From Lytechinus pictus (taxonomy: Eukaryota): DNA of 64,000 bases. Every line of letters begins with the position of its first letter. The first letter of the stretch is position 1. Shown in pieces: positions 15,377-60,627 of this stretch. The notes under the pieces are model-generated. The model was not told the DNA's origin, did not search any database, and saw only the letters and a program-made list of their open reading frames with translations. The stretch covers positions 24,740,001-24,804,000 of the forward strand of contig NC_087250.1 of the NCBI RefSeq assembly GCF_037042905.1, given 5' to 3'. Both the position numbers and the translations under genes were made by a program.

Positions 15377-15737
15377 GATTGAATAATGCAGGGGTGGCGA
15401 AATTGAAAAGTCCTTAGAGCAAACTGTGACTCCTAACAGCTCAAAAGTCCAACAAACGGATATAACACAAATATACAGGTATGTTCCTAGATAAAAGAAT
15501 AAATTCTCAACTGCGAAGCGTTCTTTAAGATATATGAATGGGTAAAAAAGACAATTAGAAGGATCACAACTAAAGAGTTCAACGAAATATAACAAAAATA
15601 CAGGAAGTATGTTGCACAAGACAGGTGAATTGAGATGGAAGATGCTTTCAAATCGACTCCACGAAGAAGAATGCTAACTTGTTAGAAATTGGCTTTTGCC
15701 CCCTCCCGAAATTACCACGTCAGCTAACGCGACGTAG

Positions 15738-35918: not shown

Positions 35919-36216
35919 CTAATTTTTGTCAAAGAGGATTTCAGCTTCATGTCTTAAGCCAACAGCTCCCAGGCAAGTTTGGAGTTTCTCAACCTGCTCA
36001 CTGGGTCGGACATGCCGTCTCCAATGCTCTAGCATTTCTCGAAGACCCGATCTTGAGACACTCCTAGCCGAGGAGTCTGCTCTGACCAAGTATTTCTCCA
36101 CCGTTGAGTAAGAGAAACCAAGTTTGTAGCCAAGTTCCCGAGCATCCTTAATCTCACATACCAAATCGGACAGGACCTGTAGTATGTTGTTTGATGCAAA
36201 CCTCTTTCTGTCTCGT
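35919..36216 (-). CDS. Terminal exon, death domain 5
   Basis: VLSDLVCEIKDARELGYKLGFS...EMLEHWRR..KLQTCLGAVGLRHEAE then stop; TTGCAG acceptor. Confidence 0.8.
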
Positions 36217-39200
36217 CTGCAAGATAGGAAGCGATGACGAAATATCTTAATAGTTAAGGAAATACATGCCCCTACTGACCTACCTGCATTTGTCTACTAT
36301 CTACATGATCTAAACGCAAATTAAGCCTTAGGGTAAGTTTTGGTTCATAATCACACCCCATATGAATCATTAGAGATCATTCCCTTCGGAGGTATCCCGG
36401 GGGGGGGGGGGGCGTCAAATGTATTGCTGTACACATGAGTGACCAAATTATTCATAAACACGCCCTAATCGAGTTTTTCTCTGTGCGCAAAATAAACCCT
36501 AAACAAGTTTTTCGCGGGCTTCATTTTCACAATTTGGCCCCTAAACGAGTTGTCGCCAGAATATGACCCGGGGGGGAAACATAACCTAAACACGTTTGGC
36601 TAGTCTTTTAAAAAAAGCTTTGGAAAAAAAACATACCCTAAAAACGTTTGACCCCGTGATTGACCATTGACCAGTCTTTTTCAAAACCACTTAAAAAAAA
36701 AAAAGTGTTTTTGATACCCTTAACAAGTGCACGCGCGGCCCGCGTCCAGGGCTGAAAAACACCCCTTTAACCTTCTTTTTTTTGGTCACGCACGTGTACA
36801 GCAATATATTTGACCGCCCCCCCCCCCCCCCCGGGGGGGGGGGCGCGTTTCCGTTTTACACCCTGGCGAAGGCAATCTCCGCAAAAATAGCTACAAAGCG
36901 ACTAGTGAAGAGTCTAAATTTGTTTACATTATCAGCTGGGCGCGCGATGCAAAAGTCCGAACCGAAGATATCTGCAGAATATGTGCAATGAATGCAACTG
37001 AGCTATACTATTGCAGCTGAGCTTAATGCTATATTGTAAAGATGGAAAGGAATAACGATGGTAGATATATTATATTCGACTGTGAACTAGATGGAGTTTG
37101 AATGATAATAGGAAATGTTTATTTTCCAACAAGGAACAAGGCAAATGAGCAAATAGATTTCCTGAAAAAAATCAAAATGTTTTATCTCAGTCATGTATAG
37201 GTGGTGATTTTAATATGATATTAAATGATAAATTAGATCATATCGGGTCAACTATACAGGTGAAATCTAGATTTAATACAGAATTTTTGGAGTTCATGGA
37301 CAAATTTCAATTAATAGATATTTGGAGGAAAAGATATTCAGGAAAACAACAGTTTACTTTCAGACAGAAGACACCACCTATTCAAAGTAGGCTAGATTAT
37401 TGGATAATATCAGGAGAAGTTGAAACATTGGTGTTGGAATATGACATTTTACCGTCTATAGCTCCAGACCATCATCTGGAATCTTGCTTAAAGGTCAAGT
37501 CCACCCCAGAAAATGTTGATTTGAATGGATAGAGGATAATCAAACTAACATAACCCTGAAAATTTAATCAAAATCGGATGTAAAATAAGAAAGTTATGAC
37601 ATTCTAAAGTTTCGCTTATTTTTTACAAAATAGTGATATGCACAACCCATGCAATGACATGCAAAAATTAATGAGAGAGTTGATGCTGTCCCTCACTCAC
37701 AATTTCTTTTGTTTTTAATTGTTTGAATTATACAATATTTCCTATTTTACAAATTTGACAATATGGAACAACATCACTAAACCATATAGTATTAAACAAT
37801 ACTAATTCCACATGTTCAGAGAGGAATCAATCGTTGTTTCACTTGACAATGAGGAGAAAATTAGAATATTTCATGTTTTATATAATAAAATACAAAAGAA
37901 ATAGTGAGTGAATTACGTCATCAGTATCCTCATTTGCATACCGACCAGGATGTGCATATAACTGTTTTGTGAAATCAAGCGAAACTTTAAAATGTCATAA
38001 CTTTCTTATTTTACATCCGATTTTGATGACATTTTCAGTGTCATGTTTGTTGGATTTCTCTTTTTATTCAAATTAACTTTTTGTTGGGGTGGACCTGTCC
38101 TTTAAGTGAAGCGAGGTCCTTCATACTGGAAATTCAATAACAGTCTATGTTATATGATAAAGAATATGTTTCTGCTATGAAATGAGATTCTTGGAAAATG
38201 CAATACAGAAATGTCTTTTCTAATTACTCATTGCATTGGGGCTTTATTGAATAAAAAATTAGAGAGTATACTCGAAAATATTCTAAAGAAAAGGCATGAG
38301 AAAGAAATAAGCAAAAGCTGATTTTAGAGCCCAAAAAGAAAGATTTAGAACAGCAAATTGCTGTGAATAACTCTGATGTTTTGCGGAAAAATTTGGAGGA
38401 AAAAAGAGAACTCCTTAAGAAGTTATTTGACTTTGGCCTTGATGGTCTCAAAGTAAGGTCACGTGCGGCCTGGAGTGAAAAAGAAGAAAAGAATTTTGCA
38501 TTTTTTCAACAACTTGTGTTATCAAACAAACGTAAATCTGAGATTCATAAATTCATATAGGTGAAGATAATCAGATACATAGCGAAAAAGGAGAAATTTT
38601 AAAAATCATCAAATTATTCTACAGTTCCTTATATTCTTGTAAGGGAGTTTGCAATGATGTTGAAAATTTACTGGAAAAAATCCCTTTCCTCCAAGGTATA
38701 TTACTAAATTATCAGAAGACAATAAAAATAACTGTGAGGGTAAATTAAGCAAAAGTGAATATTTTGAGGCTTCGAAAAGCATGCCACTTAATAGGCTCGG
38801 TGTAAAAATGTCAGAGGTAAAAATGGCAAAGGTAAAAATGGCAAAGGTAAAAATGGCAAAGGTAAATATGGCAGAGGTAAAAATGGCAAAGGTAATAATG
38901 GCAGAGGTAAAAATGACAGATATATAAATGGTCAGTCTTAAACCCCCATGCCGAAAATCCAGAAGCCCTTCCATGCATACAGTAGATTAGAATAAGAACG
39001 GTTCTGAGAAGAGAATTGGAATTATAATGTTTGACTAATGGAAAGGGAAACATTTTTAAATGATACTGTAGATCTTCTGCACCAAATTGATAACACTTGA
39101 GTTGGTATTTCTTATATTTTCCTGGACTTACATGCACGGCCTTCTCATGTTAAATTGCTCTTCTAATATTCATATTTGAAGCACACTTTGGATCCCAAGT

Positions 39201-42200
39201 ATTATACTTAATTCATTACAGGGGAAATTCACACTTACAAAGTTTATTGTAGAAATAGCAGCAACTAATTAAACTGATATTGGTGGGGGTTTTAGGGAAT
39301 CCATCAAATATTTAAAAAGCTATTAGAATTTTACATTTTAACGGCGACGTCATTTGCGAGCAGTTTTTCTCACATATGGTGTAATGAAAAATAAGAATGA
39401 AATATCATTTTCTAAAAAAAATAATAAAATGGTTTTTATTGTACCCTAAGTATATCAACATACAAATCATTTCACATCCGCTCCTGAAATAATTTTTTGG
39501 GCAATCATGAACCACTGATTAAAAAATTGAAAAGTGTTGGTGCATAAAATACGGGGCAGCTGCTAGTATATGACCTCTGTCAATTTAACCTCTGCCATTT
39601 TTACCTCTGCCCATTTTACCTCTGCCATTTTTACCTCTGCCATATTTACCTCTGCCATTTTGACCTCTGCCATTTTGACCTCTGCCATTTTGACCTCTGC
39701 CATTTTGACCTCTGCCATTATTACCTCTGCCATTATTACCTCTGCCATTTTTACCTCTGCCATTTTTACCTTTGCCATTTTTACCTCTGCCATTTTTACC
39801 TCTGCCATTTTTACCCGGCACCACTTAATAAAGCCCCAGGTAATGATGGTTTAACCACAGAATTCTACTCCATTTTTTGGTGTGTAATTGATGACCTATT
39901 GGTTGATTGTTTAAATGAAGCTTTTGAAATAGGTGAATTGTCTGCATCACAGAAACAAGGAGGAATCACTCTAAATTAAAAAGTAGGTAAAAACCCTCTA
40001 TACATTAAAAACTATAAACCTATTACATTATTAAACACCGATTATAAGATCCTCACCAATTAAAGAGATTCTCCCCAAAATTATACAGGTTGACCAGGTT
40101 TATGGGTAATTAATAATCGAAATAAAGGCGAAGCAGTTCGTTTTATTGATGATATTTTGTTTCAGGCTTTGAATAAAAATATAAAAGGCTATTTATTAGC
40201 GGTGGATTTTGAAAAAGCATTTGACTCTGTATCGCATGAGTTTATATACAAAAGGTATTAGAGATGTTTGGATTTGGTGTATCTTTTAGAAAGTGGATCA
40301 AAACTTTGTATAGTGGGGCATGTAGTTGTGTTATGAATGGTGGCTTCACAACTGGTTATTGTGGTATACAGAGGGGAGTAAGACAGGGAGATCCCCTCTC
40401 GCCTTACATTTTATATTATCTATTGAATTTTGTCAAATGTTATAAGAAATGATACAGGGGTTAGAGGTATTTTATTGGCTCAGAATGAAGTCAAACAAGT
40501 GCTGTATGCTGATGATGTATCGCCGAGATGAACGGTCCTTAGAAAGACTTGAATTACTTTTGATGTTTTTGGTAAATTAAGTGGTCTCATATTGAACAAG
40601 GATAAAACAAATTTAATGAAATTAGGAACTAGTACAAACCAGGACTCTGTCCCAAAAGGATGGAATATGGTTAATGTAGTGAAAATGTGGGGAATATATT
40701 TTACCATGGATGTGAAGGTCAAAGAAGAAATGAACTACAAAGAAATATTAAGCAAAATAAAAAAGTTATTGAGTTGGTGGAAGCAAAGAGATTTGACTAT
40801 ATTAGGGAAAATTCATCTTCTAAAAACTTATGCACTTTCAAAACTGATTTATGTCTCATCTTTGATTGTGGTCCCGAAGTTCTATGTGGAAATAGAAAGA
40901 ATCACATTCGAATTTATTTGGAATGGACAAGATAAAATTAAAAAGAAACACAATGTATCAAAACTATGAAAATGGAGGTTTTTATTAAAGTACAACGTGT
41001 AATGTGGATGAAAAGATTAATATATTGTAACAATCAAATGAAATGGAAAACGCTGTTCAATATTTTATGTAAATCAATTGGTGGTGTGTTCATTTTTCAA
41101 TGTAATCATAATACCGCCAAGATCAAAGCAAGGTTACCAACATGTTGAAATGTTAAGAGTTTGGCAAGGAATGGAAGAATGTAGGACAAAGGAGAATGAT
41201 TGTGTTTCAAACACTATAATATTTAATAACAAACATGTATGTATATTATACATGATATATTGATAGCAAAATGGTATTTGATATAGAACTCTATATACTC
41301 ATAACATATATAAACTTATTCATTTGATTGATGGAAACGGCCACTTAAGGCCAGTATCTTACTTTTCAAACTGCGGTTTGGACTTTAATAATATTTTAAA
41401 AATATATGGTATTAAGATGCTCTGCCAATTGGATGGAAATGTTAATTCAGGCTTAATCCATTACAAAGTAATCAGTCCCATGACGACCATATCTCTTTAG
41501 AACTATTGCGAAGAAATGTAATTCTAGACAAGATCTGTTTAAAGCAATTATATTTTATTAACGGTTTAAAAAAGACGGATGACATGCATAAAATCAATCA
41601 CATTTTTTCAGGTTTAACAGTAAAACAAATTCGGCATATTTTCATGAGACCGCGTTTTTCTACCGTGCATTGTATAGTGAAGTTCAGTTTAAACAGCTGC
41701 ACGGGGTTATTATTTACACAAATGATAAACTTCATACAATAGGTTATATTTCATCTAATAATTTTTTGTTTTGTTACCAAGAAGTTGAAACTCTTGATCA
41801 CTTATTTAAAAGTTGCCCAAATGTTCAAGCACTTTGGAAAAATATTGGACATGAATTAAGGTTAAAGGAATTGGAGAATCTCTCCATGGAAGACACTTTG
41901 TTAGGGATTGATGGAAGTTCAAATAGGATAAAATGTTTAAATACAGTAATTTTAATAGTTAAAAAGGAGATTTATTCTGCAAGGCAGGAAGCTGTTTTGC
42001 CACCTGTTGGAACCATAATAAAACCTTATAGAAAATATAGAAAAGAGGAATATAAGATTGCACAAGAGAGGAATTAATACATTGGCAATACATATCCAGA
42101 GATGGGAACAGGTTGATTTAGAGTAAGGAATGGATGCGTATATTTCATTTTTATTATTACTTTTTTTTTCTATTTTTTATTATTAAACAATGTTTTGTAA

Positions 42201-45200
42201 TAGTCTTATGTGTGATCAAATGTTACCTTTAATAATTATTTGCAATATTTATTTCGTCTTGTAATGTTTTGTGATACATGTATGATATGTTTGATTATAA
42301 ATATATTGAAATAAAAAATTGTTTCAAAAAAATAATATACAGGTTCAACACGAATGTTTGCCTTGATCATTATTTTGCTTTAGCCGAATTTCTGGTAATT
42401 TGCCCTCTCACTATAATGGAAGAAGAGGATGACATTCCATCACCGTTGTTGGTCGCCGTCGTAGTCGTAGTCGTCATATCCACGTAGTTGTTAATGTAGT
42501 TATACTTTTTATCATGATTATAGTATTAGTAGTATACTTTATTATCATGAGCATCATTTTGAAACTGTTATAAGATTGTTAATTATAAATTGCATAGTTT
42601 GTTATCAATATTATTATTATTATCATTACTATTATTATTATCACTATTACTATTATTATCAATATTATCATTATTATTGTTAGCGTCATTGTTATGAACA
42701 GTATTAGTAGTAGTAGTAGTAGTGGTGGTAGTAGTAGTAGTAGTATAGTATTAATTATTATTACATTTTTTGTTCTTCTTAGTTCTTCTCCGGCCTTCTT
42801 CTTCTTCTTATCATCATCACTGTATCATTATTACATGTATTATTATTATTAGTGAGTAGTAGTAGCTATAGAACTAGTATATTTTAATTCATCGTTTAGA
42901 ATCATTTTGGAACAATAAAGTGTGGAAACAACTGGACTTTTACATGATGTAGATTCTCCCCCTTCTCCGTTTTGTACTATTGTCTTATCATTATTATTAC
43001 CGCTTACTAAATTAATTTTGGCTATTGCTCGAATTCTAGGTTTTTCACCTCCTTGTGTATACAAACGCCACTGCAAAACATGTTCGGATTTAATTCATAT
43101 GACTGCTCTCTGTGTACATGAAGGGCCGTGTAGGCGCTGAATAGTAGATTGCATGCGGTGGTGTGGGGAGACTCGCCAGTGTCTGACGCTCATGTCTAAC
43201 CAGCGACGTGTGTAGACTCTTCACTAGTCGCTTTGTAGCTATTTTTGCGGAGATTGCCTTCGCCAGGGTGTAAAATGGAAACGCGCCCCCGGGGGGAGGT
43301 ATATTGCATATCTTTGCAAAGTAGATTGATCAGCTGGAAACAAGAAATAATTCTTACACTCTAGATTCCATGATTTACATTGAATCCATGTTATCATTAA
43401 AATTATGGGAATACTAGGGGGGAAATATCAATGATTGTGTATACGTACGTGGGGGAGATGGCATAGTCTGGTTCAGCTGGTATGAGAGAAGTAAATGAGA
43501 ATATAAGAATAAAACGAACAAAAGTAAAGAATTGTTATAAAATGTACATTGGAATCTCTCTGATCCGCATCAGTGACGGCGTGTTAAACTCAACTTCAAA
43601 TTTATTTAAAGCATTCAAACAAGAGATATATTACACAGTTTAACACAAAATAATAAGACATGGTAGCTTTGGGACCTCATAGTAGCGCTTGTGAAGGGGC
43701 CCCTTACATAGAACATTAGAACAAGAATATGATGAAAAATATTTACAATGATAATATAGAGAGTAAATACAAAAAATACACATACACACACACACACATG
43801 GTTTATCAAGATTCAATTCAAGATATTTTGTAATCTCTGAAATAAATATTTACGAGATGAATTTTTTAATATAGGTAGTGTTGGACTTGATCTGATGCTT
43901 TGTGGTAACTTATTCCATACAAACTATTACAAAAGAATTCAAAGCAGTCTTTGTTCTTGCCAGTGGTTGGTGAATAAGATTTTCCTGGCGCGTATAATTG
44001 TACATAATATTATGGACCTTTGAGTTAACAACAAAGGCATATTTTAAAAGGGAACAGTTTTGTGATGATTGTTAAAATACTAAGAAGCATGACGTCATAA
44101 TTATGTCTTGGTTGAATAAATTTCTTCCCCCCCCCCCCTCTTTTCCCTCATTATTTTGTTGTGGGTTCCCTTTCATTTTTTCTTCTTCCACTACTTGAAA
44201 TATAAACAGGGGCAGTCTCCAATGATGTTATATAAACAATTTCACTAATTTCAATTGTGTTTGCTATCTATCTATAGGCTTACAAATGGAACGCCTTTGG
44301 CATTATCACATGAATTATACGATTCAATATAGCAGCAGATAAATAATTATTCATACATAAAATAAGTTCATTGACTTTTAACCTTAACCATGTGACCACA
44401 ATCTAAATTCCAAGGATTTAAAATAAATCCAGATCGGCTATAAATATTGACCAGCCAAATATTAGATTTTATTAGATTTAAACCATTAGGATTTAAACAT
44501 AAAGCTAAAAGATTTGATTATAATTCATGTGAGATTTAAAAGTTAATCCTAAAGATTAAAAATAGATCCAAAATTTGGCTGGTCACCGTTCACAGCCGAT
44601 CTGGATTTATTTTAAATTCTTGGAATTTAGAGGGCATGTTTACTTTTTGAAAAGTTTTTTTTTTTGTTTAACTGAAACTCTTGCTGGATTGGGGTTTCAT
44701 TGACATCGGTAATAAGACTTTCAAACATATACCTTCTTTAGAGATTGTAATTTGATGTTCTGTGAGCACTGATGCACCCTGGTTAATACGAAGACATGCT
44801 TTAACTTTTCTCTCATTTGCTGTAGAGGGCGGTAGATCAAAGGTGCAGGAATGGCATCCTCCGACGAGCAGGCAATGAACAGGAACCTATAAAAAGAAAT
44901 ATATTCTGACTTTATTGCACTATGTAATGTTTGTATGTTTTTTTTTCTGGTGTATGGGCACGGCCCTGGCAAGCAGAGGTGCTGAAGCACCCCAAACAAT
45001 TCCTTGTGAGGGCTGCATTATTATTCTCTATAGGCAGCGCTCCCAGGCATTCTTGAATATGGCTTGCGCCTCGGAATAGTTTGCTAGATAGATGGCGCGT
45101 GATAAATGCTGTGTTTATTGTTAAAATTGAAAAAAAAAATTACGTAACCAAATTACCTTGTATTTTGTATTGAAACTTTCTATTTTTTATTTATTTAGTT

Positions 45201-48200
45201 ATTTTTTGCGTCTTGAATTTCTCGGGACAAATTTAATTTACATTTTGGAGTTAAAACTCTTCTTTCTTGTTTTTAAATTTACATCAGCACCTCCAGTAAA
45301 AAAAAATAAAAAATCCTTCACAGGGCCGTGTGAGCAGGATGTCACGTCAAACACACACATTCGCACGCACCATACGCGCACGCTATTACTCAAACGATAA
45401 CAGACATCGGTGAATTTGTGTCTGACCTACTGAACGTAATACAAATAAATCTAGATTTACCTCATGAAAAAGAAATATATATATATTACCCAATAGACCA
45501 GTCGGATCTACTTCAAAAACTGTTATTAAGTAAAGGATTCTTACCGTTTCATGGCCCGTCTGTAAGTCTGACAGACACCAAAGCTTGATTTCATCTTCCG
45601 ATGATTGAAGATTGAATTTGAAAACAGTCGTTTCTTGATATGACTCTTTTGACAGAGTCTCGTGACGTTTGCTGACGTCCTGCGCAAAAAATAATCCGAG
45701 GATATTTAGAAAGAAAATGTTCGCTCAATATAGCAATAACCTATAGGCATACACATCGTGAATATTCAGGCAGCATTGCAGCAATACATATTTAATTCTT
45801 TTTACCTAGTAATGTATACTTGACATTAACTAACACACTGATATACCCAATATGACACGAAGCAAAAATGAGGGAATATATTTTTTGTCCATTCACTTGG
45901 CGTCTTATGAGTTAAGGGACAAGGTAAAGGATATACGTACTGTAAGGTATTCGCTGTAGGGGTGAGCGACACGAACACAGAGTCTCGGTATTTGGGAACA
46001 GTAAGTATGAAACACCGTACATGTGAATTGAACACCATGGACATTTGTTGATGACAATGCACATAACTGAAGATGACACGTAGAAAACTCAATCTTGTCT
46101 TCCGTGATCTTGAAACTCGATGTCTGTGGGGCTAAAGTCCTGTATCCAAATGTACCTACATGGACGAAAGAAAGTAACGCACATTGTCAATGTCTTTCCC
46201 GCCACCAAATCTCTTATTCCTGCATTCATTACATAAATCCTACATCGGGAATGTAGATTTTAAAAACACATATGGCCACAGGACATTGTGTATCGCAGGT
46301 AGCCAGGTAGTAATACTCGTGAAGTTTGAAGCGATGAATAGCACATGTAGTTAGGCCCTCACAATTTTTTTTAAATGTAATTACAGATTAAAGATTGTGT
46401 TATCATTTTGCTCATGGACGACAATATTGAGAGCCTGTGTCAATTTGACTAACACATTTTACACAATAGCTATAATATTAAATGCTTGACTGGTAAAATA
46501 GAGTTTGATTGTCTTATCTTTTCCAACGAAGGTACTTTTATGTGTAACGAACATTTACATTAGAGTGAACATGCCATAGGTCGTCATACAATTTAGAAGT
46601 GTAGGTGGTCTATGGATACAAAGATACTCTCTCTCTCCTACACATTTTTAGTGTGTCTCGTCTCTCGATCGGCCAAACCAATCTCTCTCTCTTTCTTATG
46701 CTGGCTTGATTCTTTTGAAAATAGTAATTTTGCTGTTCGATAATAGGCCTATTTATCATATGCGTCTGTCATGTCTGAAGGGGAAATTATAAATAAAAAA
46801 ATACGAGACATCGGATGAGTATATAGAAATAATTGTACCTGGTTTTAATTTGGTATAAAATTTAAAGCACACCACATCTTTATCCCCTTCACATCGCTCT
46901 GAAGTGACGCAGTAAGGAAGAGAAATAGAAGCAGGTTTGAGAAGTTCTTCAAAGAACGAACATTGGATGATTGGTGTTATGAGAATCTCTCCATTTCCCA
47001 TAGGGAACTTCGGTGAACTTCGTCTTGGAACGGTAAGGATAACAACTGATGCCATTCCTTTGGGGATTGCTCCTGGAGGGATGGATATTCTGATATCAGG
47101 TTCATCTAGCTTCAACTCACCACCATCATGACCAATCATCCCATGCGAATGGTGATCCAAGAAGCCTGGGTGGTGATCCATTGCTACGAGTAATAAAAGT
47201 AACGCACCAAACATGACAAAGTGACACGTTTTCATCAACATATATTTTCATCAATATATAACAGAAACACGTGAGCATCTGCTATAAAAAAAAAAGATCT
47301 AGTCAATATGTATTTGGATTTTGACGATCAGGAAGCGATCTAGGAGATCGGAGTATACACCCCCTCGATTTTCGAATATATAGGGCCATTGAGTGTGGGT
47401 AGTCCCACCCCCCCCCCCCCCCCCCCCTCCCGTAAATGGACCAAATCCCGCGAAACATCCGCCTCTGATCGTAAGGATAATAGAAGGCTATCTGGGAGGG
47501 GCGAAAGTTTAACTGATAATTTGCCAGACAATTATTTTCTGACACAAAATCACGATTTTTTTTTACTGGTTGAATTATTTTATGGGAATTTAATATCTAA
47601 GCCTACCTATTCCAATATTTTTGGCAGCATCGTTGAAATGGAAAGCATGGGCAATTTCGAGAAGCCTCTGCCTTCTTCCTCCCTGCTTGACCCATGTTTG
47701 TAGCATACAAAGAACGGCATTCTGTCGTATTAAGTTAGGTTCAAGTGTCAAAGACGAACACATCAGCCGAAGAATTTCAGATGCTGACTGGTCAAGCCGT
47801 TGGGAGAGGACAAGAAGATCTGGAGTTGTAAAAATCTCCTTAGAGATTTCTTCAAGACCTTAAGAATGAATGGAAACACGAGCATGCCCATATTGATGAT
47901 TTTTTTTTAATGATATTTAAAGCTAAAAACATTATACGATCAGGGACAGGTTCTTATTAACCATTAGTATTCAAATAAAAGTTAGTATCCAAATAATAGA
48001 GTACATGAACTATGTACTCATGAAGTGACTGGGTAAAATACCATTTCACAACCAAATAAGGATTTTCTCTTTTTTTGTTGAAAACTTTGAGTATCCTCAA
48101 ACACCACCAATAACGACTAATGAAAATATCATTGTATGAAAAGTGCAATACATCATGCTCATCAATTTTTGCCACCTTTTTTTTAAAACAAATCACTTAT

Positions 48201-51200
48201 CAAAACGCAACTGATATAAGATTGGTTAATAAGCCGAAGAAAATTGTCTACACAATTAGGAAACACTATTACATTAACATGAAAGGTGGTCTAATTACCT
48301 TTACTGCCGTCCTGGATGTTGTAATCATGAAGAATCTTTGTTATCTTCTTTTCCCTTTCATTGCTTTCTAAACGTTTTCTCCATCTATTGAGGAGTTGCC
48401 TTGCTAGTTTCTTCATTGGTGCAGGGTTAGACGGAGTTATACAACCCACTATGTCTTCGTCATCTACGCGTAGAGCTTTACCCAATTCCCACGCCAAAGA
48501 CAGACTCGTTATCGGTAGAGCGACGCTGCACAATTCCCAAGTAGTCGGTGAACCTCCACATTGGTCCTTATCATCACCGGCCTCCTCTACATCTAGGATT
48601 GCTATTTATAATATCAAGTCAAAGATGATTTTTTTTTCTCCGAGAATATATCTTTCAGTTACGTATTTTTCTTGAAAATTATTCTCCAGTTCGTTCCTAT
48701 TCTTTCGTGATATTGTTTTCTCTCTCTCTTGAATCCTAATAACGTAATTATGATGATTATCACTTATCATTACCATCATCGTCATAAGTTAACACCCATT
48801 ATTTACCTACATGAATATCCCTCCACCCCTGTATATCTCCCCCCCCCCCTTCTCTCTCTTTGTGTACGTAGGCATGCGGGATGAGGTTGGGAAATAAAAC
48901 ATACTTGACTCTGCATATCTGATGACCTCCAAGACTTCAGGCTCATTGCACTCATTCCCATCTGTCATTTGTTCATGAAAGGTCTCGTCGTCATCTATAA
49001 CACCATATTCTTCGTCGTCGTTGTCGTCGTAGTGGTCAATGTCCTTCTCCTCCATATTTTCTTCCCCATGGTGGTGATCGTCGTGCTCATGTTCTTTCGA
49101 TTCTTCTCCTCGTTTTCCTCCTGTAGGAGCATTATATACATGGAATAAAATATTTTATTGTTGCTTGCATTATGATCAACACACAACGACATAATAAATG
49201 TTGAATGACATTGTTGATAACAATGATTCTTAGCATAGATTATTACCAGGAAAGAGAATTAAATTCCCTTTGCAAGGGCCACTCAATAAATAGTTTGATT
49301 GCTTTGGAACATGGGCATTGTTTTCTGGAGTGTTGGACGATAACGTAATTACCATTTTCAGGAAATAAAAAAAAATATCCAAATTTTAAGTCAATGTATG
49401 AATAATAATGTAGCATTTGCAATAATTACTACAATATTTAAGATAAAAACGGAAATTAATTATTGAGGAAAAGGGTATGTCCTAAGGAAAGATTTGAAGC
49501 CGAGAACACTGGAAGCATTTCTTATTGAAAGAGGGATAGCATTCCAAGTCTTGGCAGCTGCTACAGCAAAACTTTTTTCGGCAGAGGAGAGTTTTGACAA
49601 GGGAATGCAAAGTCTGCATGTGTCAGTGATTGAACGAAGATTACGAGAGGGTGTGTATAATTTGATGGTATTATTAAGATTAATTAATTGATTATTAAGA
49701 TTAATGTTAAATTATTATTTATAAATTGTACGCGCTATGGTACTTTTTGTTTTTAAGCGCCTCTAAATATCCATTATTGTATTATTATTAATTTTAAGTC
49801 AGGAAAATTGAAGAGAATTTAACAAAAATTAGATGTAAAAGAAATATGTATTTTCAATTCCCTCAACGATTATTAAAAATATCTTTGAAGACAGATTTTA
49901 CAAACAGTTAAGAAAAAGACATTTCTGTTACAATCCAATGCTTTTGCCATGTATTGTTTGAGTTAACATAGAAAACAAATGTATGATTTCGTAGACGCCA
50001 ACCTTTTAAGTCATGTGCTTCAGAGGATCGATTTACAGACTCCCAAACCCTCTTTAATGTCTCCTTTGCCTCAGGTAATGATGTTTGGTCTGCTTTCCAG
50101 CTTGAGAGCATTTGGATGTTAGCGTCTTTCCTATTGTATAATGTCCTGTACTCGATGTGCTGTAGCTCTGATTTGTCAAATCCGAGTTTTTCGCCAATGT
50201 CGAAGAACTTCTCTGCGCTGATATGACGGGCAATTGCTAGCAGTGTGGTGTCAGGAATCTCCCTGTGAAATTACAGAAATATCACCAGAACATTTAATGT
50301 ATATTGAACCATAAATGAATATGATTTAAGTGATAGCATGGAGTGACTGCCTCTTGAAATGTGCATTAACTCAACGATACCACTTGAAGTTCTTTAAAAT
50401 TATGATACGATAGCCGACATATCTAGTAGATTTAGACATTCTATTCCAAACATGTTAAACGCTGATAATTGGTGATAACTTAAAAGTGATGGCAGGTAAT
50501 CATTAACTGATAAGTGATAATAGGATGTTACTAATTATTTTTTATGTTGGATTTGTGTGTTTTTATAGAATAGAATAATACATTAAATATACAAACTTAC
50601 TGAGTAGCTTCGATGTCTTGATGTAGGTAGCCAGACAAGTGACGCAGCAACAATTGGAACGAAAATGAAATAACAAGCATGAAAGGAATGAGAATTGAAT
50701 TCAAAATTGAAAAATAGATATACATAGGTTTGATATTAACGGTCTTGTGGTTATGCATTTTTTTTATTAGAGAATCATCAAGATATTACATAAATAATAC
50801 TCCACCTTAGATATGAGGTTTTGTGGATTTTGTCACGCAAAGCTGTATGAGGCTTTTCCAAATATCACCGTTTCATACAATATCAATAAATGATGAAATA
50901 TTCTTAATACATTAATGATCACTGATTATCAATCAACTTTGTTGAAGACTCTAATGAACTTATTGTAACAAAATGAAATGTTCATTTAATATTCAGCATG
51001 GTTTCGTAACAGTGAAGAGCGCAGTACAATGTTTGATCCATGTATATAGTTGCATAGGGGATTTCAGTAATCGTTCATGTAATCGATTGTGTAAAGTATT
51101 TTATTTAGAATATATTTCAAACCATTATTTGCTGAGAAATAACGATGTATGATGTGTGATTATGATAAGATAATCACTTTTAATTGTTCTTTACTGTTCG

Positions 51201-54200
51201 TGTATAAAAAGCAATGACTATTACCATTGCTGCCGTTGAAAAGATTAATTTTATGACTCTGTTTTTAAAAGAAGATTACATTTTATAGTATGACATTCTC
51301 CCTCCTTCTTCACCGAGAAAAACAAAAACTATGCCCAATTTCAAGCCATTCAAATTTCATGACAGTTAAGAATACCCGACAGTTAGTGGATTTAGCACGA
51401 AATTCTGATCACGTGTAAGAAACTTGCAGGACACGATGCTCATGATAACGATAGTAATGTATAAGGAGTAAAAACTGTCATGCTTGATCGTTATTTGGTG
51501 TTATTATACGAGAGCTTAAAATGCGTGGTCGAAATAAATAGAAGTAGGAAAGTGTTGGAAGACTGACTGGAATGAGTGAGAATACTGACTTTACTGAGAT
51601 ATAATTGGTACTTGCCTTTCATATTTTTATCTGTGTTTAAAATCTTAACCTTATCCATACCTGAAAAAGATATATGTCCAGTTGTTGAATCTAATGATTG
51701 CATTAGTAAGATGAGCTTGTTCTTTGCTTCAGGAACAGTCGGTTGCCTCTCTCTCCATATAACAAGCATGTCGTAGGTAGCCTGCTGTCTGTCTTTAATT
51801 CTTCTGTACTCGATGCGATCTAACTCAGCAATGGTAAAACCAAGAGCTACGCCCAAATCATAGAACTGGTTGACGGTCATTGTCTGGGCTATTGTAAGGA
51901 CATCGGCGTCTGTTAGGAAGTCACTGTGCTTGGCTTCTTCCACTGCCCTGTAAAATGTTAAGTGAATGTAACAGACCGAGCGAACGCCAAGTGCCTAAAC
52001 CGAATTCAGCAGTATTCTTCACGTCGTTACCCCCCCCCCCCCCCCATCAAATGCTGATTAAAACATTCATATCCATCAAAGGCTTCATTTATTAGAATAT
52101 AATAGGAACAGGTTTTGGTCATAGCTTTTGGTGCACCACCATACGTGTGATCTGCGGCGAATTTGATAGAGAATTCCAGCGTAACAAGCACGGGTCAACA
52201 CTATCTTTTGATTAAACACAAGCAGTGTGGGACGTCATGGTCTAGCGGTTATGTCCTCGGCTTTCTACTCCGGGACGCGGGTTCGACTTACGAATCACAG
52301 ATATTTGTTCGGAGTTGATTGCACGTTGTGATGTGCATGCGTGTAAAGGCCCCCTCACACCTAGCCGAATTGCCTGAAATAAGCCTTGCGATGGCTGGCA
52401 AAAGGCTTTTTTTTTATTCGTTTTCATTGGTAACTGATAGTAAATCGTATTTACCCTTTGCGTTTGGGTTCGTACACCTTCTGAACTAATTGCTGCAATT
52501 ATTCAAATTCGCGCGGAAATTTTGAACATGTTTAAAATTTCCCGACGAATTGAAAAATCGTTGGTCATCTGTTTGAATTCGCATCTCTTATTTAGTCTGC
52601 GGTAATCGTTCGTGGTTTATTGTCGCGCATAGTCCCTCATCGCGCTTTTGCCAAAGTGGACCGATCTCGAAAGATCCATTAACGAAGCAACACGATGACA
52701 AAAACGAACAAGAACGCCCGATCTATTCCTTCGTCTTCGTTTCTAATCGCACGCCATATCAAACCATTGCTCACTGTTCGTTTGTCTTATTAGGTTAAAT
52801 CAACACTTCATTTGCCTTCGGCTGCAATTTACTCAAAGAGGTGAACCGAAAAATCGATACCGTTCGCATGTTATATTTATCCATTCGTTGAAAAAAATTG
52901 ACAATAGTTACTGATCGCATGATTTGACGAAAATTTTATTTGAATTCGTTGAATTTGCGTACATTTTTCCATTCTTCACCCTTAGTCCGCCTACATTCGG
53001 TCAGGTGTGAGGGGGCTTTTTAGCAAGACACCAACGAAAAGCTGATTACCTCTCCTTTTCCCGTTTCACTGCAAGATCACCCTCCCTCTCTCTATAAGAT
53101 TATTTAAACATTTTATGATCAAAGTTAAGTAATATATCAAATTATGTCGTTCCCTTGGCATAATTATATTGATTCATACTACCTACCTGACGAAGGACGT
53201 GGCCTCGTAAAATAATTCGTGTGTCCGTCCTTCTGGCATGTCTGGGTATAAAAACACATCAAACGTTATGTTTGAATTTATATGATCTTGATATACCTGT
53301 GACATTTCGCCTTATCATTCACTGACAATAAAGGCATTCAGCCTTATCGATTATTTTCATTCAAGAAACAAAAATGTCAGATTTTCCTTTATAATGGGCA
53401 GCAAAATTACTTATATGATCGAAAACCTATACATATTCCATGTGCCTTTTCATATCATTTTCTATAAAAATTGGAAAGTTAGCTTCTCCTACTATCTTTT
53501 TGATGAAATTGATTACATAACAATAAACGATGGTACAAAAATACCTGTGTATCTGATGACGAAAACAATGGATTGTGACACTTCGAGATTTCCGGCCTGT
53601 GTAATTGTGATGGTAATTCTTGTAAAGTCTTCATCATCCCCTTGAGGAGAAATGGCAAACATTACATTCTGACTCATCTTGGTTCGAATGTCCTTGGAAC
53701 GAAGGATCTGTATAAAAAATATATATATATATATATATATATATTCAGTTGAAGTAATAAATATTTGTTTCGAATGACTTGCGAGGTGCTGGTTCAACAT
53801 CCGTTTTGCAAGCTTGAAATTGTTAAAATTACACGATTCCATATTAAGTTGTCACTACGCGATGGTTTTACATTTCATGCTGCAAATGCCTGATTAATGC
53901 TGATTATTAAAAATAAACATGTTTTCAAAACGGGCCATTGCCAAAGAACGAAGCTATGGAAAATGATCAGAACACAATAGAAAGCTAATCTACTAACGAA
54001 TCACACGTGTTTCCTTTAATGCAGTCACATTGTAACCAAGAAATGTGTGTGCATGCAAGAAGCGCGTGGTATTTCAATGGTAAAAGGTAGAAAATTTGCA
54101 TAATTTATCATCAAGTCGAATTGTACTCTTCATCTTTTACACATTAGGTCCTCATTGGTAGCCAATTTTATACCCTTAGACTACGATTCATGTACCACGA

Positions 54201-55214: not shown

Positions 55215-55270
<56 letters not shown>

Positions 55271-55285
55271 TATATACTGTATATA

Positions 55286-55319
<34 letters not shown>

Positions 55320-58300
55320 AAGGATGTGTCTTTGAGGTAATTGTGTAATACTGTCAGATAAGCTGGATTAACTTTATTTTCTGCCCCTTTCACTCCCTTC
55401 TTACTTACGTCCTGTAAGTTCTAAAGTAGTTCCTGTAACTTAAACATGGGTTATGTTTATTTTTTGCTGTAACATAATTACAGAACATAATAGCGGTGAT
55501 GAAGAATTCTTGATCTGTTAATGATACCTTTCTTTCAATTTGTTCCTCCTCATGATAGCAAGTCAATGTGACGTCATTAAAATTCGCTTCAACGCTGAAT
55601 GGAACAGAGCGATGCCCTTTACGGAATAACTGCTGCATATTCTCCTCTTGTATGTCCTGTTGAACGGGGATTATAATTGCTTTACATGTATCTTTATCAT
55701 AATGTCAATGACTACATGTAGTAGGAATTTAGGGTCGCTTGTACATCAGGTATAGAAAATAATACAAAAAATAGAAAATAAAAATTATATGAAAAAAACA
55801 GAATACAGCAAATTTTGTTGTTGTTTTCTAATTCACGAATATCAACCCAGTCGAAGTCCTCGTTCACAAAAAAAGATCTTCTCTCTGAAATACGAGTAAA
55901 GTCCAGGAACTTTGGTGATAGAGCTTTTTGTAGAATAGCATCAAATTATGGAATAACTGACATCATTATATAGATCAATAAACAGATTCAAATCTCTTTA
56001 TAAAACGTACCTTTTTTTAAACCCTAATAATGTATAAATAGGGGGTTCATTCAGCCTCCCCCCCCCCCTCGACATTTTTTTACGATAAATCCGCCGCGCA
56101 AAAGTTTTTGACTGCGTCGCTAGCAGCTTTTTTTTTTCAAAGTCTCGCGCAACTTTTGAGACCAAATTTCCGACCCCCGGGTTGGGGGGGGGGTCCGTAT
56201 TTATGCAACAGTTCGTTGTGCATGTAGACCCAAAATTGCTCGAAAACGTGAATTTGTGTACAAATTCAATGCAAATAGTGTTTTTAGCCAAAATTCATGA
56301 TTTTATCATAATTGTTTTTATCTTGCTGATTAAAATCAATTAATTTAATCCTGCCTATGGTCAAAATAAAGTCCCCGAAAATTTACATTAAAAAAAACAA
56401 TAATAGACAAAAAGTCTAAAAATAAAGAAATACATACGAATTTTAGAGAACAATAAAATACATAAAGTAAATTGAATGTGTCTTTAATGCATTTAATCAG
56501 ATTCCTATAAAGAGTATGTGAACTAAAAATTAGCAAAATTAGGGGCATTATGTAGTTAGTTAGCAAACGTTTGATTTTACGCATAAATTAGCATAATTGA
56601 TTAGCAATGAGATTTTTTGCAGAATTTGATTTAATAGTTTTGTAGTTTATGCCATGGGTAATGCGCGAACCAATTTTCGTTGCGATTGCGCGATCGACGA
56701 CTGTCTTCTTAGGCGTCGAAATAGCCCAGTCTTTTAGGGATTAAGAAGCACATGTACTAGCCCTATACAAAATAATAATTCTTCCACACGCATATAGACT
56801 AAATGGTATTATGAATCCCTAAGACGTGCTTATTATTATTACTTTTCATTCATACCTTGTTTGGTGATGTAAATAATAGTATACAATACCGATAATATAT
56901 AGAGCTTACTGACCATTTCAATCCCAGGAATGTCGGCATGCACATGAAGGCTAACCTCAAACTCTTGCCCCCTCTGTATATAGTCTGGGATGTATGGAGT
57001 GCATAGAAGCCGGTGTCGGATCACATGTTGTTTAAGAGGAATCAGAACCCACCAATCAGCACAGTGACCAATGTACAGCTCAAGATGACTCTTATAAACT
57101 TCGGAGTACGGTGGTTGGTCCGGTGAACTGGATGACCTCATTCTGACAGTTTTGGGTAGGTCTTATTTTAAAAAAGAAATAAATTAAATATAGATTTGGG
57201 AGTATCATGTAAGTAAAGACTGACGACATTGTGACTGGTGTTGCTACTCTTTCCTTCAACACAATTCGTGTTGTGAACACATTGGCGGCGGAGCAGATGA
57301 TTATCTTTTGTGTTTGGGGGGACGCAACAATTGATATCAATTTTTGCGTCCCCCCAAACACAAATGATAATCATCTGCTCCGCCGCCAATGTGTTCACAA
57401 CATTATAATTTACCCCGCACTACCAACACTGATATCATCAACATAACCACAACTGCATAATATGATAAGCAAAATGAACTATTTCTTACAGGCTAGCAAT
57501 GAAGTCGTTTCTGGATGCCCTGACTAGCACATTAATGGTGTGGAGCTCATCCGGCATCTTGCAACAAAATTTATCAAATTTATTTTATTTCAGCCCAGTT
57601 GAAACTGTAGTGAAGTATATTGGTGACATAAATTGAGGAAACAGAATTGAAAACGATGAAGAAATGACATAGAAGAAGCATTTTCTGTGATTTAAGAATA
57701 AATATCGTATAAATTAGCATAAATAATTTTTTAGTCAAAATTTCTAAATTATGTGTAGAACCTTGTTGAGCTCTCAGATCGAACAACAAAGATCAAAATC
57801 ATTCAACAAAAAATAAGCATTTTATGTTAGTTTTGAAAAATATGCATAAATAAGCATATTTCACGAGTTTCAAAATTCTGTGTAAAAAAGCTACTCAAAA
57901 GTTTTAAAATTATTTGTAAAAGTTTTGTGAAACTCATGAAGCTCTAGATCTACCAGATGGAAGGAAAAAAAATCAAAATCGGTCAACAGATAAAGTAGGA
58001 GAAGCGTTTTATGTGAATATTTAAAAATATGCATGAATTTTATCAACTTTTTCAAAAATCTTAGAAAAACTTGTGTATAGTCGTTTATTTTCCTTCTTGT
58101 CAAAAAGAGATATACTGTACCATAAACAATACGGGTTTAGACAGAACTACAGTACTTACATGGCTCTTTTAGATTTTACTAATATTGTTGCTAAATCATT
58201 TGAAAATAAAAGAGTTGTTTTAGGTATATTTTTAGATTTAACCAGGGCATTCGATTGCATAAGTCATGAAATACTTTTACAAAAATTGCAATTTTATGGG

Positions 58301-60627
58301 ATTAGGGGTACAGTACTTCAATGGTTTTCTAGTTACTTGAACAAAAGAACTCAGTATGTTTGTGTAAATAATGTATCTTCTGAAATCACACATAATACCT
58401 ATGGTGTCCCTCAGGGATCAGTATTGGGTCCCTTATTATTTTTGCTGTTCATAAACGACATTCAATATGTAAGTAGTATATTACAATCAATAATTTTTGC
58501 GGATGATACAAGTTTATTTCTATCTGGTGAAAATATTGATACATTGTGTTTTACTTTTAATACAGAACTTAAAAAATTTGATACTTGGTTTAAAGCAAAT
58601 AAATTAAAATAAAATGCAGAAAAAACTTCCTGTATGTTATTTCAGCCAAAAAATAAAAATATCGATACTTCTTGTATAAAAATATATATCAACTAACAAA
58701 TTATATCGATTGTAAATTCTACAAATTTTTTTAGGAGTTAAAATTGACAATAAATTGACATGGAAAGAGCATGTATCTTATGTATCATGTCAAATATCTA
58801 AAGCTATTGGTGCAATGAATAGAATAAAGAAAATTGTTCCTTTTTATATCCTTCTTAAATTGTATAATAGCATGATCTTGCCATATCTTAACTACTGTAA
58901 TATAGTATGGGGTGGCTGTGCAAAGACCTATCTTAATAGAATTTTCATTCTTCAAAAACGAGCAATACGAATTATGTTTAATTTACATCCTTACTCACAC
59001 ACTGCTCCTGTCTTTAAAAAATTCAGTATATTAACAATTTTTGATATACATAAACAACAGATTGGCATATTTATGTTTTCGTACTCCAAAAATATACTTC
59101 CGAAGTTTTTAGAAAATTGTTTTGTATATAATAAAAATGTATGTAAATATGCGACTCGTCAATCAAATCTTTTCTATCTACCAGCGCTAAATTATAATTT
59201 CTCAAGAACTACCATTTCTTATGCAGGTCCTAAGTTTTGGAACAAATTACCACAAGAAATCAAAATATGCCCAACTTTGAATATGTTTAAAAGAAAACTA
59301 AAAAATACCTAGTTGAAAATGAATCCTAGAATAAAGTTAACAAAATCTTGCCTGGGGGGGGGGGGTCCAGGATGTCTGGTTGTCTTTTGTTATTTCATTT
59401 ACACTTATATTTTTGAATTCCATGTGTGTCTATTTCTTTTTCTATTGTTTTGTGTTATACTTTGTATATATTGAAGAAACATTTTATGTAAATTTTTATT
59501 ATCTTTGGGAATAACCCTGATAGGCCTTTGGCCTTTGTCAATTCCCACCACATTATGATTCTGAACTGAATATGTTTCTTTTTAATGTTTTTTTTTTAAT
59601 TGTATATATCTATTTGCATATGAATTTGTACTTGTGTTTTTAATCAGATGTGGAAATAAAATTGAATTGAATTAATTTCGCATACATTAGTATAACATTT
59701 TTTCTAGTTAAAATGTCAACATTCTTTGTATAATTTTGGTGAACCTCACGAAGCTATACCAGATGGAAGGGAAAAAAACAAAACCGATTAACAAATAAAG
59801 AAGCATTTTTTTTGGGGGGGGGGTGTTGGTGAATTTTGAAAAAGGCGCATAAGATAACATATTAAATGAGTTTCAAAATTCTGTGTAGAAGTTTTGAATC
59901 CCCCACCCAGTGCTATCAAAGCAAACGGAATTTAAATCGGACTTGAAATGACGAAGAAGAAGCATTTTGAAATGGTGGACAGACGACGGACGCCATGGCA
60001 CGGCGTAAGCCCATCTGGCCCTTCGGGCCGGACGAGCTAAAAACCAGTCGATATAACTTGATAGAGACCAAGCATGCTCAGGGCAACGTGTCACCATCAT
60101 TATCATCTGACAGGCTGTCTTCATCATCGGCTGTCATTTTTTTTTATTATGATTCACTAACAAACAGAGGCCTGTGCAGTGGTAGACAGTATGGTAATTT
60201 TAGAGAGTCAGAACTTATCAGTGGTTACAAGATTAATGAATCGGTCCCATGAAGACACCCCAGTATCCTACATTTATTAACTTACCACTCACAGAATCCC
60301 ATACGCGGTACACGATGTCTGGTTTCACCTGCTGTGGATTGATGACAAAGATAGAGTGTGGTATAGTTATTTTAACAGGTTGGTTGAAGATCACGGTTGG
60401 AGGGTCACACCTGATCCCACAGCAGGCCATTGATTCACTTACTGGGATGTCAACACCAGGATTGTCTCTTATGATGGCCAGTGTGATCTGACAAGAGTCA
60501 TCATGTGGAACTGCTCCAGGAGGAATGTACATCGATATCCCATGGTCTTGTAGTTTGATTTCCTGACTGGTATTACTTTTTACTTCTGCAGAAACCTCGG
60601 GAGAGGTGAATGGCCTATTAGTGAGTT
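35919..60627 (-). CDS. Multi-exon ZU5-UPA-death-domain protein (UNC5/PIDD/ankyrin-type supramodule, duplicated); >=1145 aa, 5' end unresolved
   Basis: 17 GT-AG exons splice into one open frame (3437 nt, all phases consistent): 60286-60627, 56914-57161, 55528-55656, 53545-53707, 53187-53241, 51661-51947, 50601-50616, 50003-50262, 48905-49120, 48299-48592, 47607-47858, 46839-47183, 45941-46155, 45545-45679, 44733-44886, 43449-43476, 35919-36216. Confidence 0.8.
37492..38101. mobile_element. Kolobok-like MITE inserted in the LINE
   Basis: TTAA|AGGTCAAGTCCACCCCA ... TGGGGTGGACCTGTCCT|TTAA. Confidence 0.75.
38794..39822. mobile_element. Second TU/Foldback-type element, 15-bp unit GGCAGAGGTAAAAAT
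   Basis: Inverted repeat arms ~38800-38930 and ~39570-39815. GG...CC ends. ACTTAATA duplicated. Removing it restores the LINE frame MPLNKAPGNDG. Confidence 0.85.
42600..42870. repeat. (ATT)n/(TAG)n/(TTC)n microsatellite cluster
   Basis: Direct inspection. Confidence 0.7.
44402..44629. mobile_element. Palindromic MITE
   Basis: CTAAATTCCAAGGATTTAAAATAAATCCAGATCGGCT and AGCCGATCTGGATTTATTTTAAATTCTTGGAATTTAG arms. Confidence 0.65.
44733..46155 (-). CDS. Exons 45941-46155, 45545-45679, 44733-44886: end of ZU5 and UPA-like domain, module 2
   Basis: In frame across canonical splice sites (GTFGYRT..., DVSKRHE..., VPVHCLL...); phases match module 1. Confidence 0.7.
46839..47183 (-). CDS. Exon, ZU5 domain 2
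   Basis: GMIGHDGGELKL..IRISIPPGAIPKG..ITPIIQC..LLKPASISLPYC, a ZU5 signature. Confidence 0.85.
47607..49120 (-). CDS. Exons 48905-49120 (acidic/His-rich linker), 48299-48592 and 47607-47858 (death-like domains 3 and 4)
   Basis: AWELGKALRV..QLLNRW and LCMLQTWVKQGG..LLEIA; phase-1 junctions consistent. Confidence 0.72.
49394..49790. pseudogene. L2/CR1-type LINE 3' fragment with internal inversion
   Basis: 49394-49670 matches 27453-27650 on the same strand; 49728-49790 matches the tail at 16861-16912 in reverse orientation. Confidence 0.6.
50003..50262 (-). CDS. Exon, death domain 2
   Basis: IPDTTLLAIARHISAEKFFDIGEKLGFDKSELQHIEYR..QMLSSWK. Confidence 0.8.
51661..51947 (-). CDS. Exon, death domain 1
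   Basis: LTDADVLTIAQ..FYDLGVALGFTIAELDRIE..YDMLVIWRE. Confidence 0.85.
52347..53018. mobile_element. Harbinger-like non-autonomous element interrupting a tRNA-SINE head (52229-52345)
   Basis: TIR AGGCCCCCTCACACCT..CCGAAT and ATTCGG..AGGTGTGAGGGGGCT; SINE A/B boxes lie upstream. Confidence 0.6.
53187..57161 (-). CDS. Exons 56914-57161, 55528-55656, 53545-53707, 53187-53241: end of ZU5 and UPA-like domain, module 1
   Basis: Consecutive in-frame splicing DLPKTVRMRSS.., DIQEENMQQ.., ILRSKDIR.., DMPEGRT.. Confidence 0.72.
54600..54880 (-). pseudogene. CR1-type LINE RT fragment
   Basis: GAVPQGSILGSLLFIICINDI. Confidence 0.6.
55030..55224 (-). mobile_element. Penelope-like pLTR remnant forming a 133-bp palindrome with a hammerhead-like core
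   Basis: Inverted arms 55092-55224. Minus strand reads CTGATGA-N10-GAAA-CAGTCTGTA, then AATAAA. Flanked by (TA)n. Confidence 0.5.
56021..56740. mobile_element. piggyBac-like MITE
   Basis: TTAA|ACCCTAA ... TTAGGGA|TTAA. Confidence 0.5.
57269..57402. repeat. 134-bp near-perfect palindrome (MITE)
   Basis: TGTTGTGAACACATTGGCGGCGGAGCAGATG ... CATCTGCTCCGCCGCCAATGTGTTCACAACA. Confidence 0.85.
57515..60043 (-). mobile_element. Helentron/HINE-like non-autonomous element carrying a CR1 insertion
   Basis: Minus-strand start TTTTTAGCTCGTCCGGCCCGAAGGGCC hairpin followed by CGTC repeats. Subterminal inverted repeat AGCTCATCCGGC at ~57545. Confidence 0.5.
58073..59673 (+). pseudogene. 5'-truncated CR1-type LINE (RT and 3' UTR)
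   Basis: HKQYGFR, FLDLTRAFD, GVPQGSVLGPLLF, FADDT; stops and frameshift at ~58612-58750; (ATTGA)n tail. Confidence 0.88.
60286..60627 (-). CDS. Exon, ZU5 domain 1
   Basis: LQDHGISMYIPPGAVP..CDPPTVIFNQPVKITIPH; GTAAG donor. An alternative acceptor near 60586 is possible. Confidence 0.82.

Follow-up and report, generated by a model that had tools for sequence, protein, structure and literature searches.

What would a cell gain from a protein that appears to carry the ZU5-UPA-death domain (DD) cassette twice, with three further death folds between the two copies? The question is raised by a 17-exon locus on the minus strand of a 64,000-nucleotide stretch of the genome of the sea urchin Lytechinus pictus (NCBI RefSeq assembly GCF_037042905.1, contig NC_087250.1, positions 24,740,001 to 24,804,000), and this whole 64-kb stretch is referred to here as the window. 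The locus is a real gene, already predicted and so far unstudied.

Gene model and encoded domains

The twelve exons of the two modules were recovered by three-frame reading of candidate regions together with splice-site scoring, and have AG/GT ends. Joined with the five middle exons they form a single frame of 1,147 codons, closed by a stop and free of internal stops, as a first-pass annotation of the DNA had proposed. All 1147 of the 1147 residues are identical to residues 156-1302 of XP_063957337.1 (LOC129280412, 1,302 amino acids, Lytechinus pictus), an automatic RefSeq prediction found through a cluster look-up. The exon sizes listed earlier for module 1 (342/248/129/163/55/287) and module 2 (345/215/135/154/28/298) were all located, 12 of 12, and the entry phases 1,1,0,0,1,2 are found in both modules alike. 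Older models of LOC129280412 or of near-identical neighbours are fragments, namely a 283-residue piece covering exons 1-4 and pieces of 683, 799 and 820 residues from the remainder.

In a Pfam scan of 14 single exons, the ZU5 family (PF00791) was matched above cut-off on exons 1 and 12, and UPA was matched on none of them. The UPA domains that follow each ZU5 were recognized by fold, using models of two relatives that are about 90% and about 43% identical and were built on shallow alignments of 38 and 60 rows; these align across ZU5 and UPA to 3g5b, 7jkq and 6m3q, and to the UPA of NLRP1. The models support ZU5-UPA folds in both modules, and the presence of two ZU5-UPA-DD cassettes in one gene model is upheld. 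Within the 1,147 residues there is no transmembrane (TM) segment (the highest hydropathy window is 1.26) and no caspase-type site D-x-x-D-[GSA].

Pfam Death is matched above cut-off on exons 6 and 17 and just below it on exon 8. DD1 and DD2 are, from their residues, a clear tandem duplicate (hhalign 99.3%, 35% identity), and DD5 is supported by fold searches on relatives. DD3 and DD4 both match in hhalign, DD3 against a pooled DD profile; DD3 is helical in a near-identical relative, with a predicted local distance difference test (pLDDT) score of 82-90, and DD4 has six helices in its model and Death-cluster leads of 0.86-0.88 in the Atlas, while its copy in one relative reaches Pfam Death at E 0.008. 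They are probable divergent death folds. Of the five death-fold domains first claimed, DD1, DD2 and DD5 are thus firm, whereas DD3 and DD4, on which Pfam Death finds nothing, stand on weaker ground. The additional DD-like exons between the modules (exons 8, 10 and 11) were found as described, as was the acidic, His-rich linker, in which 29 of 72 residues are Asp or Glu and 7 are His. The linkers are otherwise variable, yet two short motifs are kept: in 20 of 23 rows EPDY precedes DD5 (43449-43476), and the acidic linker closes with x-I-I-x (about 48912-48926). One of two models predicts a strand at the latter, and the two motifs could form an intramolecular latch.

PIDD, NLRP1 and CARD8 cut themselves at an HF/S or SF/S site at the end of ZU5, and in NLRP1 and CARD8 a Ser-to-Ala change blocks cleavage (PMC3210808). 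The module-1 sequence H-C-A-D-W-W lies in plain register with the H-F-S-E/D-W-W of the nearest outside ZU5 families, and its nucleophile column holds Ala in 30 of 30 family rows. In module 2 the column is filled by Gln, Glu or Ile (31 of 31 rows). The register there is the analyst's reading; the models back it with a matching turn that joins the last pair of ZU5 strands, and hhalign placed this short stretch differently. Ser, Thr or Cys occurs there in 0 of 30 module-1 rows and 0 of 31 module-2 rows. Judged from these alignments, the autocleavage nucleophile is lost in both ZU5 domains and the modules are predicted to be non-cleaving. A different ZU5-UPA-DD cassette with an intact HFS lies downstream of death domains in P0027, P0034 and P0166, which suggests that cleaving and non-cleaving forms have been exchanged within the family.

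An urchin family and the origin of its two modules

The RefSeq model adds 155 N-terminal residues with Pfam ankyrin repeats, encoded by exons outside the window. No ankyrin or other family exons were found elsewhere in the 64 kb, and the 155 residues match nothing there. The ankyrin array may be longer, because the start of XP_063957337.1 looks mid-repeat. Upstream exons for Ig, TM, LRR or NACHT segments, which the first-pass annotation had asked about, are not borne out, as the model has ankyrin repeats instead; Pfam finds only Ank, ZU5 and Death on the full model, whose 5′ end may be incomplete.

Word-based searches, phmmer and cluster members gave a family set of 172 proteins. In 12 of these the module-1 ZU5, DD3/4 and the module-2 ZU5 lie on one chain, and six of the 12 also have DD5. 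The named proteins with the full layout come from L. pictus, L. variegatus and Strongylocentrotus purpuratus, with identities of 40-65%, and the same exon-by-exon domain order is found in L. variegatus XP_041452873.1, L. pictus XP_063960372.1 and S. purpuratus XP_030843541.1. Since six relatives from three urchin species hold it whole, the double module is a family trait and not the property of a unique gene. The suspected lineage restriction holds, in that among named proteins the complete architecture occurs only in Lytechinus and Strongylocentrotus. The gene is one of many paralogues, labelled "uncharacterized" in RefSeq and "Netrin receptor UNC5" in UniRef. Ahead of ZU5, Pfam counts 19 Ank stretches in P0167 (1,907 amino acids) and 29 in P0153 (2,135 amino acids), and the expanded family layout is ANK(n)-ZU5-UPA-DD-DD-acidic linker-DD-DD-ZU5-UPA-DD. 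Two Diadema proteins, XP_071479624.1 and XP_072164167.1, show ANK-ZU5-UPA-DD-DD with an acidic tail and without module 2, which is possibly the older form.

Modules 1 and 2 are homologous by profile-profile comparison (hhalign 94% probability with E 1.2e-7, at 18% identity over 251 columns), and the positions of three introns are in register (exon 2/3 with 13/14, 3/4 with 14/15, and 4/5 with 15/16). An old internal duplication of the whole cassette had been read from this correspondence, a reading that shared introns alone do not establish, as they may be ancestral to all such cassettes. In trees each module forms its own clade across species, and module 1 is nearer to stand-alone HFS-type ZU5 families than is module 2. 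In a ZU5-UPA tree (38 rows, 282 columns) module 1 groups with the HFS-type families at a weak support of 84; a constraint joining the two modules costs 6.9 log-likelihood units (approximately unbiased test, p=0.049), a value that is a mere hint because the outgroups came from a module-1 query and module 2 sits on a long branch. Deep nodes of a 127-row ZU5 tree, run in quick mode, are not resolved. An origin by fusion, from two old cassettes that were paralogues, accounts for the data no worse than internal duplication and perhaps better.

Transcripts and the surrounding window

Four runs were mapped on 43400-62500, comprising the contig sets X1 and X5 from two studies and about 6% of two raw RNA runs. 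X1 and X5, which have no RNA label on record, are taken as transcript-derived solely because their contigs skip GT-AG introns. A 2,777-nt X1 contig that begins at 51992 is GT-AG spliced from exon 6 through exon 16 and goes on for 521 nt beyond exon 16, as expected if exon 17 and the 3′ untranslated region follow (the exon 16/17 junction lies outside the mapped stretch). X5 contigs without differences from the window have the same joints. Ten of the 16 junctions are seen in this way, nine in joint tables and exon 12/13 from contiguous record positions, and they include the exon 11/12 joint that ties the DD block to module 2.

Relative to the window the X1 contig is patchy: exons 6, 8 and 15 have 0 differences, but exon 12 has 25, exon 13 has 15 and exon 14 has 8. 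Over exons 10 and 12-14, the 38 sites listed alter 34 codons, 23 of them non-synonymously and 11 synonymously, and 13 of the 23 non-synonymous changes match the residue of related RefSeq models. Either the variant segment is a recombinant allele, or the assembly has pieced alleles or paralogues together into a mosaic.

The exons are listed in Table 1. A 37-nt candidate for exon 7 at 50842-50806 and an exon-10 acceptor at 48592 are ruled out by the transcript contigs, which place the latter acceptor at 48601; for exon 1 the RefSeq model takes the phase-1 site at 60627 over a phase-2 acceptor at 60614.

Table 1. Exons of the locus, in window coordinates
Feature	Position	Strand	Evidence
Exon 1 of window (internal; 342 nt), N-terminal part of ZU5-1	60286..60627	-	Pfam ZU5 E 3.2e-12; 100% identity to RefSeq residues 156-268
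Exon 2 (248 nt), ZU5-1 end with degenerate cleavage site H-C-A (relatives: H-F-S) and UPA-1 start	56914..57161	-	Identical to RefSeq model
Exon 3 (129 nt), UPA-1	55528..55656	-	
Exon 4 (163 nt), end of UPA-1	53545..53707	-	RefSeq model; depth 0 in 4 of 4 runs for bin with 116 nt of exon 4
Exon 5 (55 nt), UPA-DD linker	53187..53241	-	RefSeq model
Exon 6 (287 nt), DD1	51661..51947	-	Pfam Death E 5.1e-6; contigs extend unspliced into intron 5
Exon 7, 16-nt micro-exon	50601..50616	-	Letters within joint 50262/51661 in X1 and X5; same residues in relatives
Exon 8 (260 nt), DD2	50003..50262	-	Pfam Death E 5.8e-4, below cut-off; transcript joints
Exon 9 (216 nt), predicted disordered linker, acidic and His-rich	48905..49120	-	Transcript joints; conserved x-I-I-x strand motif at end
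Exon 10 (303 nt), DD3, probable divergent death fold	48299..48601	-	hhalign E 4.9e-4; helical model; transcript joints
Exon 11 (252 nt), DD4, probable divergent death fold	47607..47858	-	hhalign E 7.1e-4; six helices in model; transcript joints
Exon 12 (345 nt), ZU5-2	46839..47183	-	Pfam ZU5 E 5.4e-14; exon 11/12 joint in X1 and X5
Exon 13 (215 nt), ZU5-2 end with H-L-Q at cleavage-site position and UPA-2 start	45941..46155	-	
Exon 14 (135 nt), UPA-2	45545..45679	-	Transcript and fold match
Exon 15 (154 nt), end of UPA-2	44733..44886	-	Transcript and fold match
Exon 16 (28 nt), linker; EPDY motif conserved	43449..43476	-	Transcript; EPDY in 20 of 23 family rows
Exon 17 (298 nt up to stop), DD5	35919..36216	-	Pfam Death 1.5e-5

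Mobile elements and repeats occupy several introns and the flanks. In intron 16 (36839-43290), 78-nt inverted repeats, 99% complementary and 6.3 kb apart, flank a broken non-LTR retro-element (zf-RVT match at 41595-42074), itself interrupted by another element with inverted arms of 15-nt tandem repeats at 38802-38931 and 39573-39815. Intron 1 holds a plus-strand reverse-transcriptase fragment in two frames (58037-59312, Pfam RVT_1 E 6e-23), and near-perfect palindromes with arms of 67-70 nt and spacers of 0-3 nt lie at 57269-57402 (intron 1) and 55087-55229 (intron 3). Outside the gene, 1-5396 and 8933-14323 form a 5.4-kb inverted duplication (99.9% identical, 0 mismatches, three gaps) that is either a very recent duplication or an assembly fold-back; it carries a DIRS-like retro-element with open reading frames (ORFs) for reverse transcriptase (12703-14586), tyrosine recombinase (11801-12805) and a probable gag (14267-15673). 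Two related arrays of 15-nt tandem repeats, oppositely oriented and separated by about 5 kb (21265-21591 and 26602-27094), resemble transposon ends, and a tandem duplication with 833-nt spacing (62604-64000, 99.8% identity over 564 nt) reaches the window edge. Rfam and tRNA scans of the window gave 0 hits.

Known systems, proposed function and its competitors

Every single domain of the protein is known and the gene is already in RefSeq, and the combination was not found described. A literature search returned no description of the architecture, although the papers on immunity and apoptosis that accompanied the 2006 sea-urchin genome did not surface in that search and could mention such proteins in their domain tables. 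The predicted echinoid ANK/ZU5/DD relatives do not differ from XP_063957337.1 in architecture, and all are automatic predictions. UNC5 shares the cytoplasmic ZU5-UPA-DD (UNC5b, PDB 3g5b), whereas the urchin protein has two such cassettes and three extra DDs, and has ankyrin repeats in place of the Ig-Ig-TSP1-TSP1 ectodomain and TM segment; UNC5CL, unlike the urchin protein, retains autoproteolysis (PMC10084454). Canonical ankyrins, which read 24 ANK-ZU5-ZU5-UPA-DD (PMC5135030), likewise place ANK repeats directly upstream of ZU5, UPA and DD; the urchin protein differs from them in its single ZU5 per cassette, second cassette, five DD-like units, variable homogenised arrays and multigene expansion. 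With PIDD1 and the FIIND of NLRP1/CARD8 the common plan is a repeat sensor, ZU5-UPA and a death-fold output (fold matches 7jn7/7jkq, 7crv/7crw and 2of5), but the RefSeq model, with its possibly incomplete 5′ end, has no LRR or NACHT, and H-C-A and H-L-Q replace the HF/S or SF/S site.

The preferred reading, on which the evidence is about evenly poised, is that the product is a cytosolic, ligand-gated, non-cleaving DD scaffold fronted by ankyrin repeats, which may serve as an intracellular immune or cell-death scaffold. The ankyrin array would bind a protein ligand. In 5 of 12 examined relatives having at least five clean repeats, the 33-residue repeats are 60-76% alike within a protein and most variable at positions 5, 10 and 13, which sit on the ankyrin binding face. 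The non-cutting ZU5-UPA modules would hold adjacent DDs folded back, as in UNC5b, where UPA and the DD are folded back upon ZU5 and the DD is kept inactive (PMC9162469). Ligand binding would then open the chain, and the clustered DDs would nucleate assembly with DD adaptors or kinases of the FADD/RAIDD/MyD88/RIPK type, leading to NF-kB or caspase signalling.

Several observations weigh against such a scaffold. Positions 5, 10 and 13 vary in ankyrin repeats generally, and the repeat comparison was made without a control. DD5 was not superposed together with ZU5-UPA on 3g5b in either relative's model, so the closed autoinhibited state was not reproduced at these shallow alignment depths. DD3 and DD4 fail Pfam and solved-structure sequence searches, and a DD4 profile search against PDB sequences gave no meaningful match. 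The 23:11 ratio of non-synonymous to synonymous codons in X1 suggests weak constraint on ZU5-UPA-2. The joining of all 17 exons, confirmed by transcripts over the ten junctions above, is not confirmed at the front, as no exon 1-6 junction is among the 15 of 28 joints listed; the raw reads are very thin (four reads with a single start, at the exon 8/9 joint only). Contigs in both X1 and X5 continue past exon 6 into intron 5 without splicing, as far as 51992 and 52045. All four runs have depth 0 in the bin 53592-54228, which contains most of exon 4 (116 nt), and the bins on exons 1-3 and 5 are uninformative, being overwhelmed by repeats.

Entry into exon 6 from intron 5 and the zero coverage over most of exon 4 make a shorter, sensor-less transcript possible. 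It is conceivable, if doubtful, that the main product is such a protein of about 800 residues (DD1-DD2-acidic-DD3-DD4-ZU5-UPA-DD5), started in intron 5, which would act as adaptor or decoy for the full-length ankyrin paralogues and can coexist with the full-length form. The spliced X1 contig and the window-identical X5 contig both begin inside intron 5, LOC129280412 had an earlier RefSeq model (XP_054772414.1, 799 amino acids) that begins at the first in-frame Met of exon 6, and several models in other species do likewise. These shared starts may be annotation artefacts, because family models break at many exons (1, 6 and 8). Contigs demonstrate presence and not absence; they drop minor forms and give no starts, the X5 contig stops at a homopolymer run, and intron retention or fading 5′ coverage would give the same picture. 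The first in-frame Met, moreover, removes helix 1 of DD1, and the current RefSeq model joins all exons.

An ankyrin-like structural adaptor, in which ANK repeats link membrane proteins to cytoskeletal or signalling partners and the DDs are inert surfaces as in canonical ankyrins, shares the front vocabulary and order (ANK, ZU5, UPA, DD), the non-cleaving ZU5 and fold matches to ankyrin-B/G/R domains. It is unlikely, as the ZU5-ZU5 tandem is absent, echinoderms hold one true ankyrin gene (PMC5135030), and the many diverging paralogues, whose arrays of repeats are homogenised, do not resemble a housekeeping adaptor. That the gene belongs to a birth-and-death cluster as a largely dispensable copy, still intact and with low-level transcription but no individual role, is decidedly improbable: many neighbouring models are fragmentary or missing exons, read depth is low, the non-synonymous share in the X1 variant segment is high and large retro-element insertions lie in introns 1 and 16, but 17 of 17 exons are in frame and stop-free, three species retain the architecture at 40-65% identity, and conservation is seen in DD1, DD2 and the motifs EPDY and H-C-A. 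A PIDD/NLRP1-like self-cleaving receptor that frees UPA-DD fragments is hardly credible, despite a fold resembling the CARD8/NLRP1 FIIND and the HFS retained by the nearest outside ZU5 families, given the invariant Ala of module 1 and Gln, Glu or Ile of module 2, and given that Ser-to-Ala abolishes cleavage in NLRP1 and CARD8 (PMC3210808).

Returning to the ligand-gated scaffold, a broader and more speculative picture can be tentatively drawn, in which camarodont urchins might have built NLR-independent cytosolic receptors with a fast-varying ankyrin sensor, two catalytically dead ZU5-UPA "locks" recruited from distinct self-cleaving ancestors, and five death folds on one chain to pre-assemble the signalling platform. 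From intron 5 the locus would also make a DD4-ZU5-UPA-DD isoform that lacks the sensor and helps the paralogues with arrays or acts as their decoy. Sea urchins depend on large expanded families of innate receptors. The locus provides a handle on this family through transcript-backed joins for the output half, the prediction that its ZU5 domains do not cleave themselves though the nearest relatives can, and a possible short isoform. If true, a multigene family that joins variable ankyrin arrays to a multi-DD output would be a further candidate system, hidden under its two database labels.

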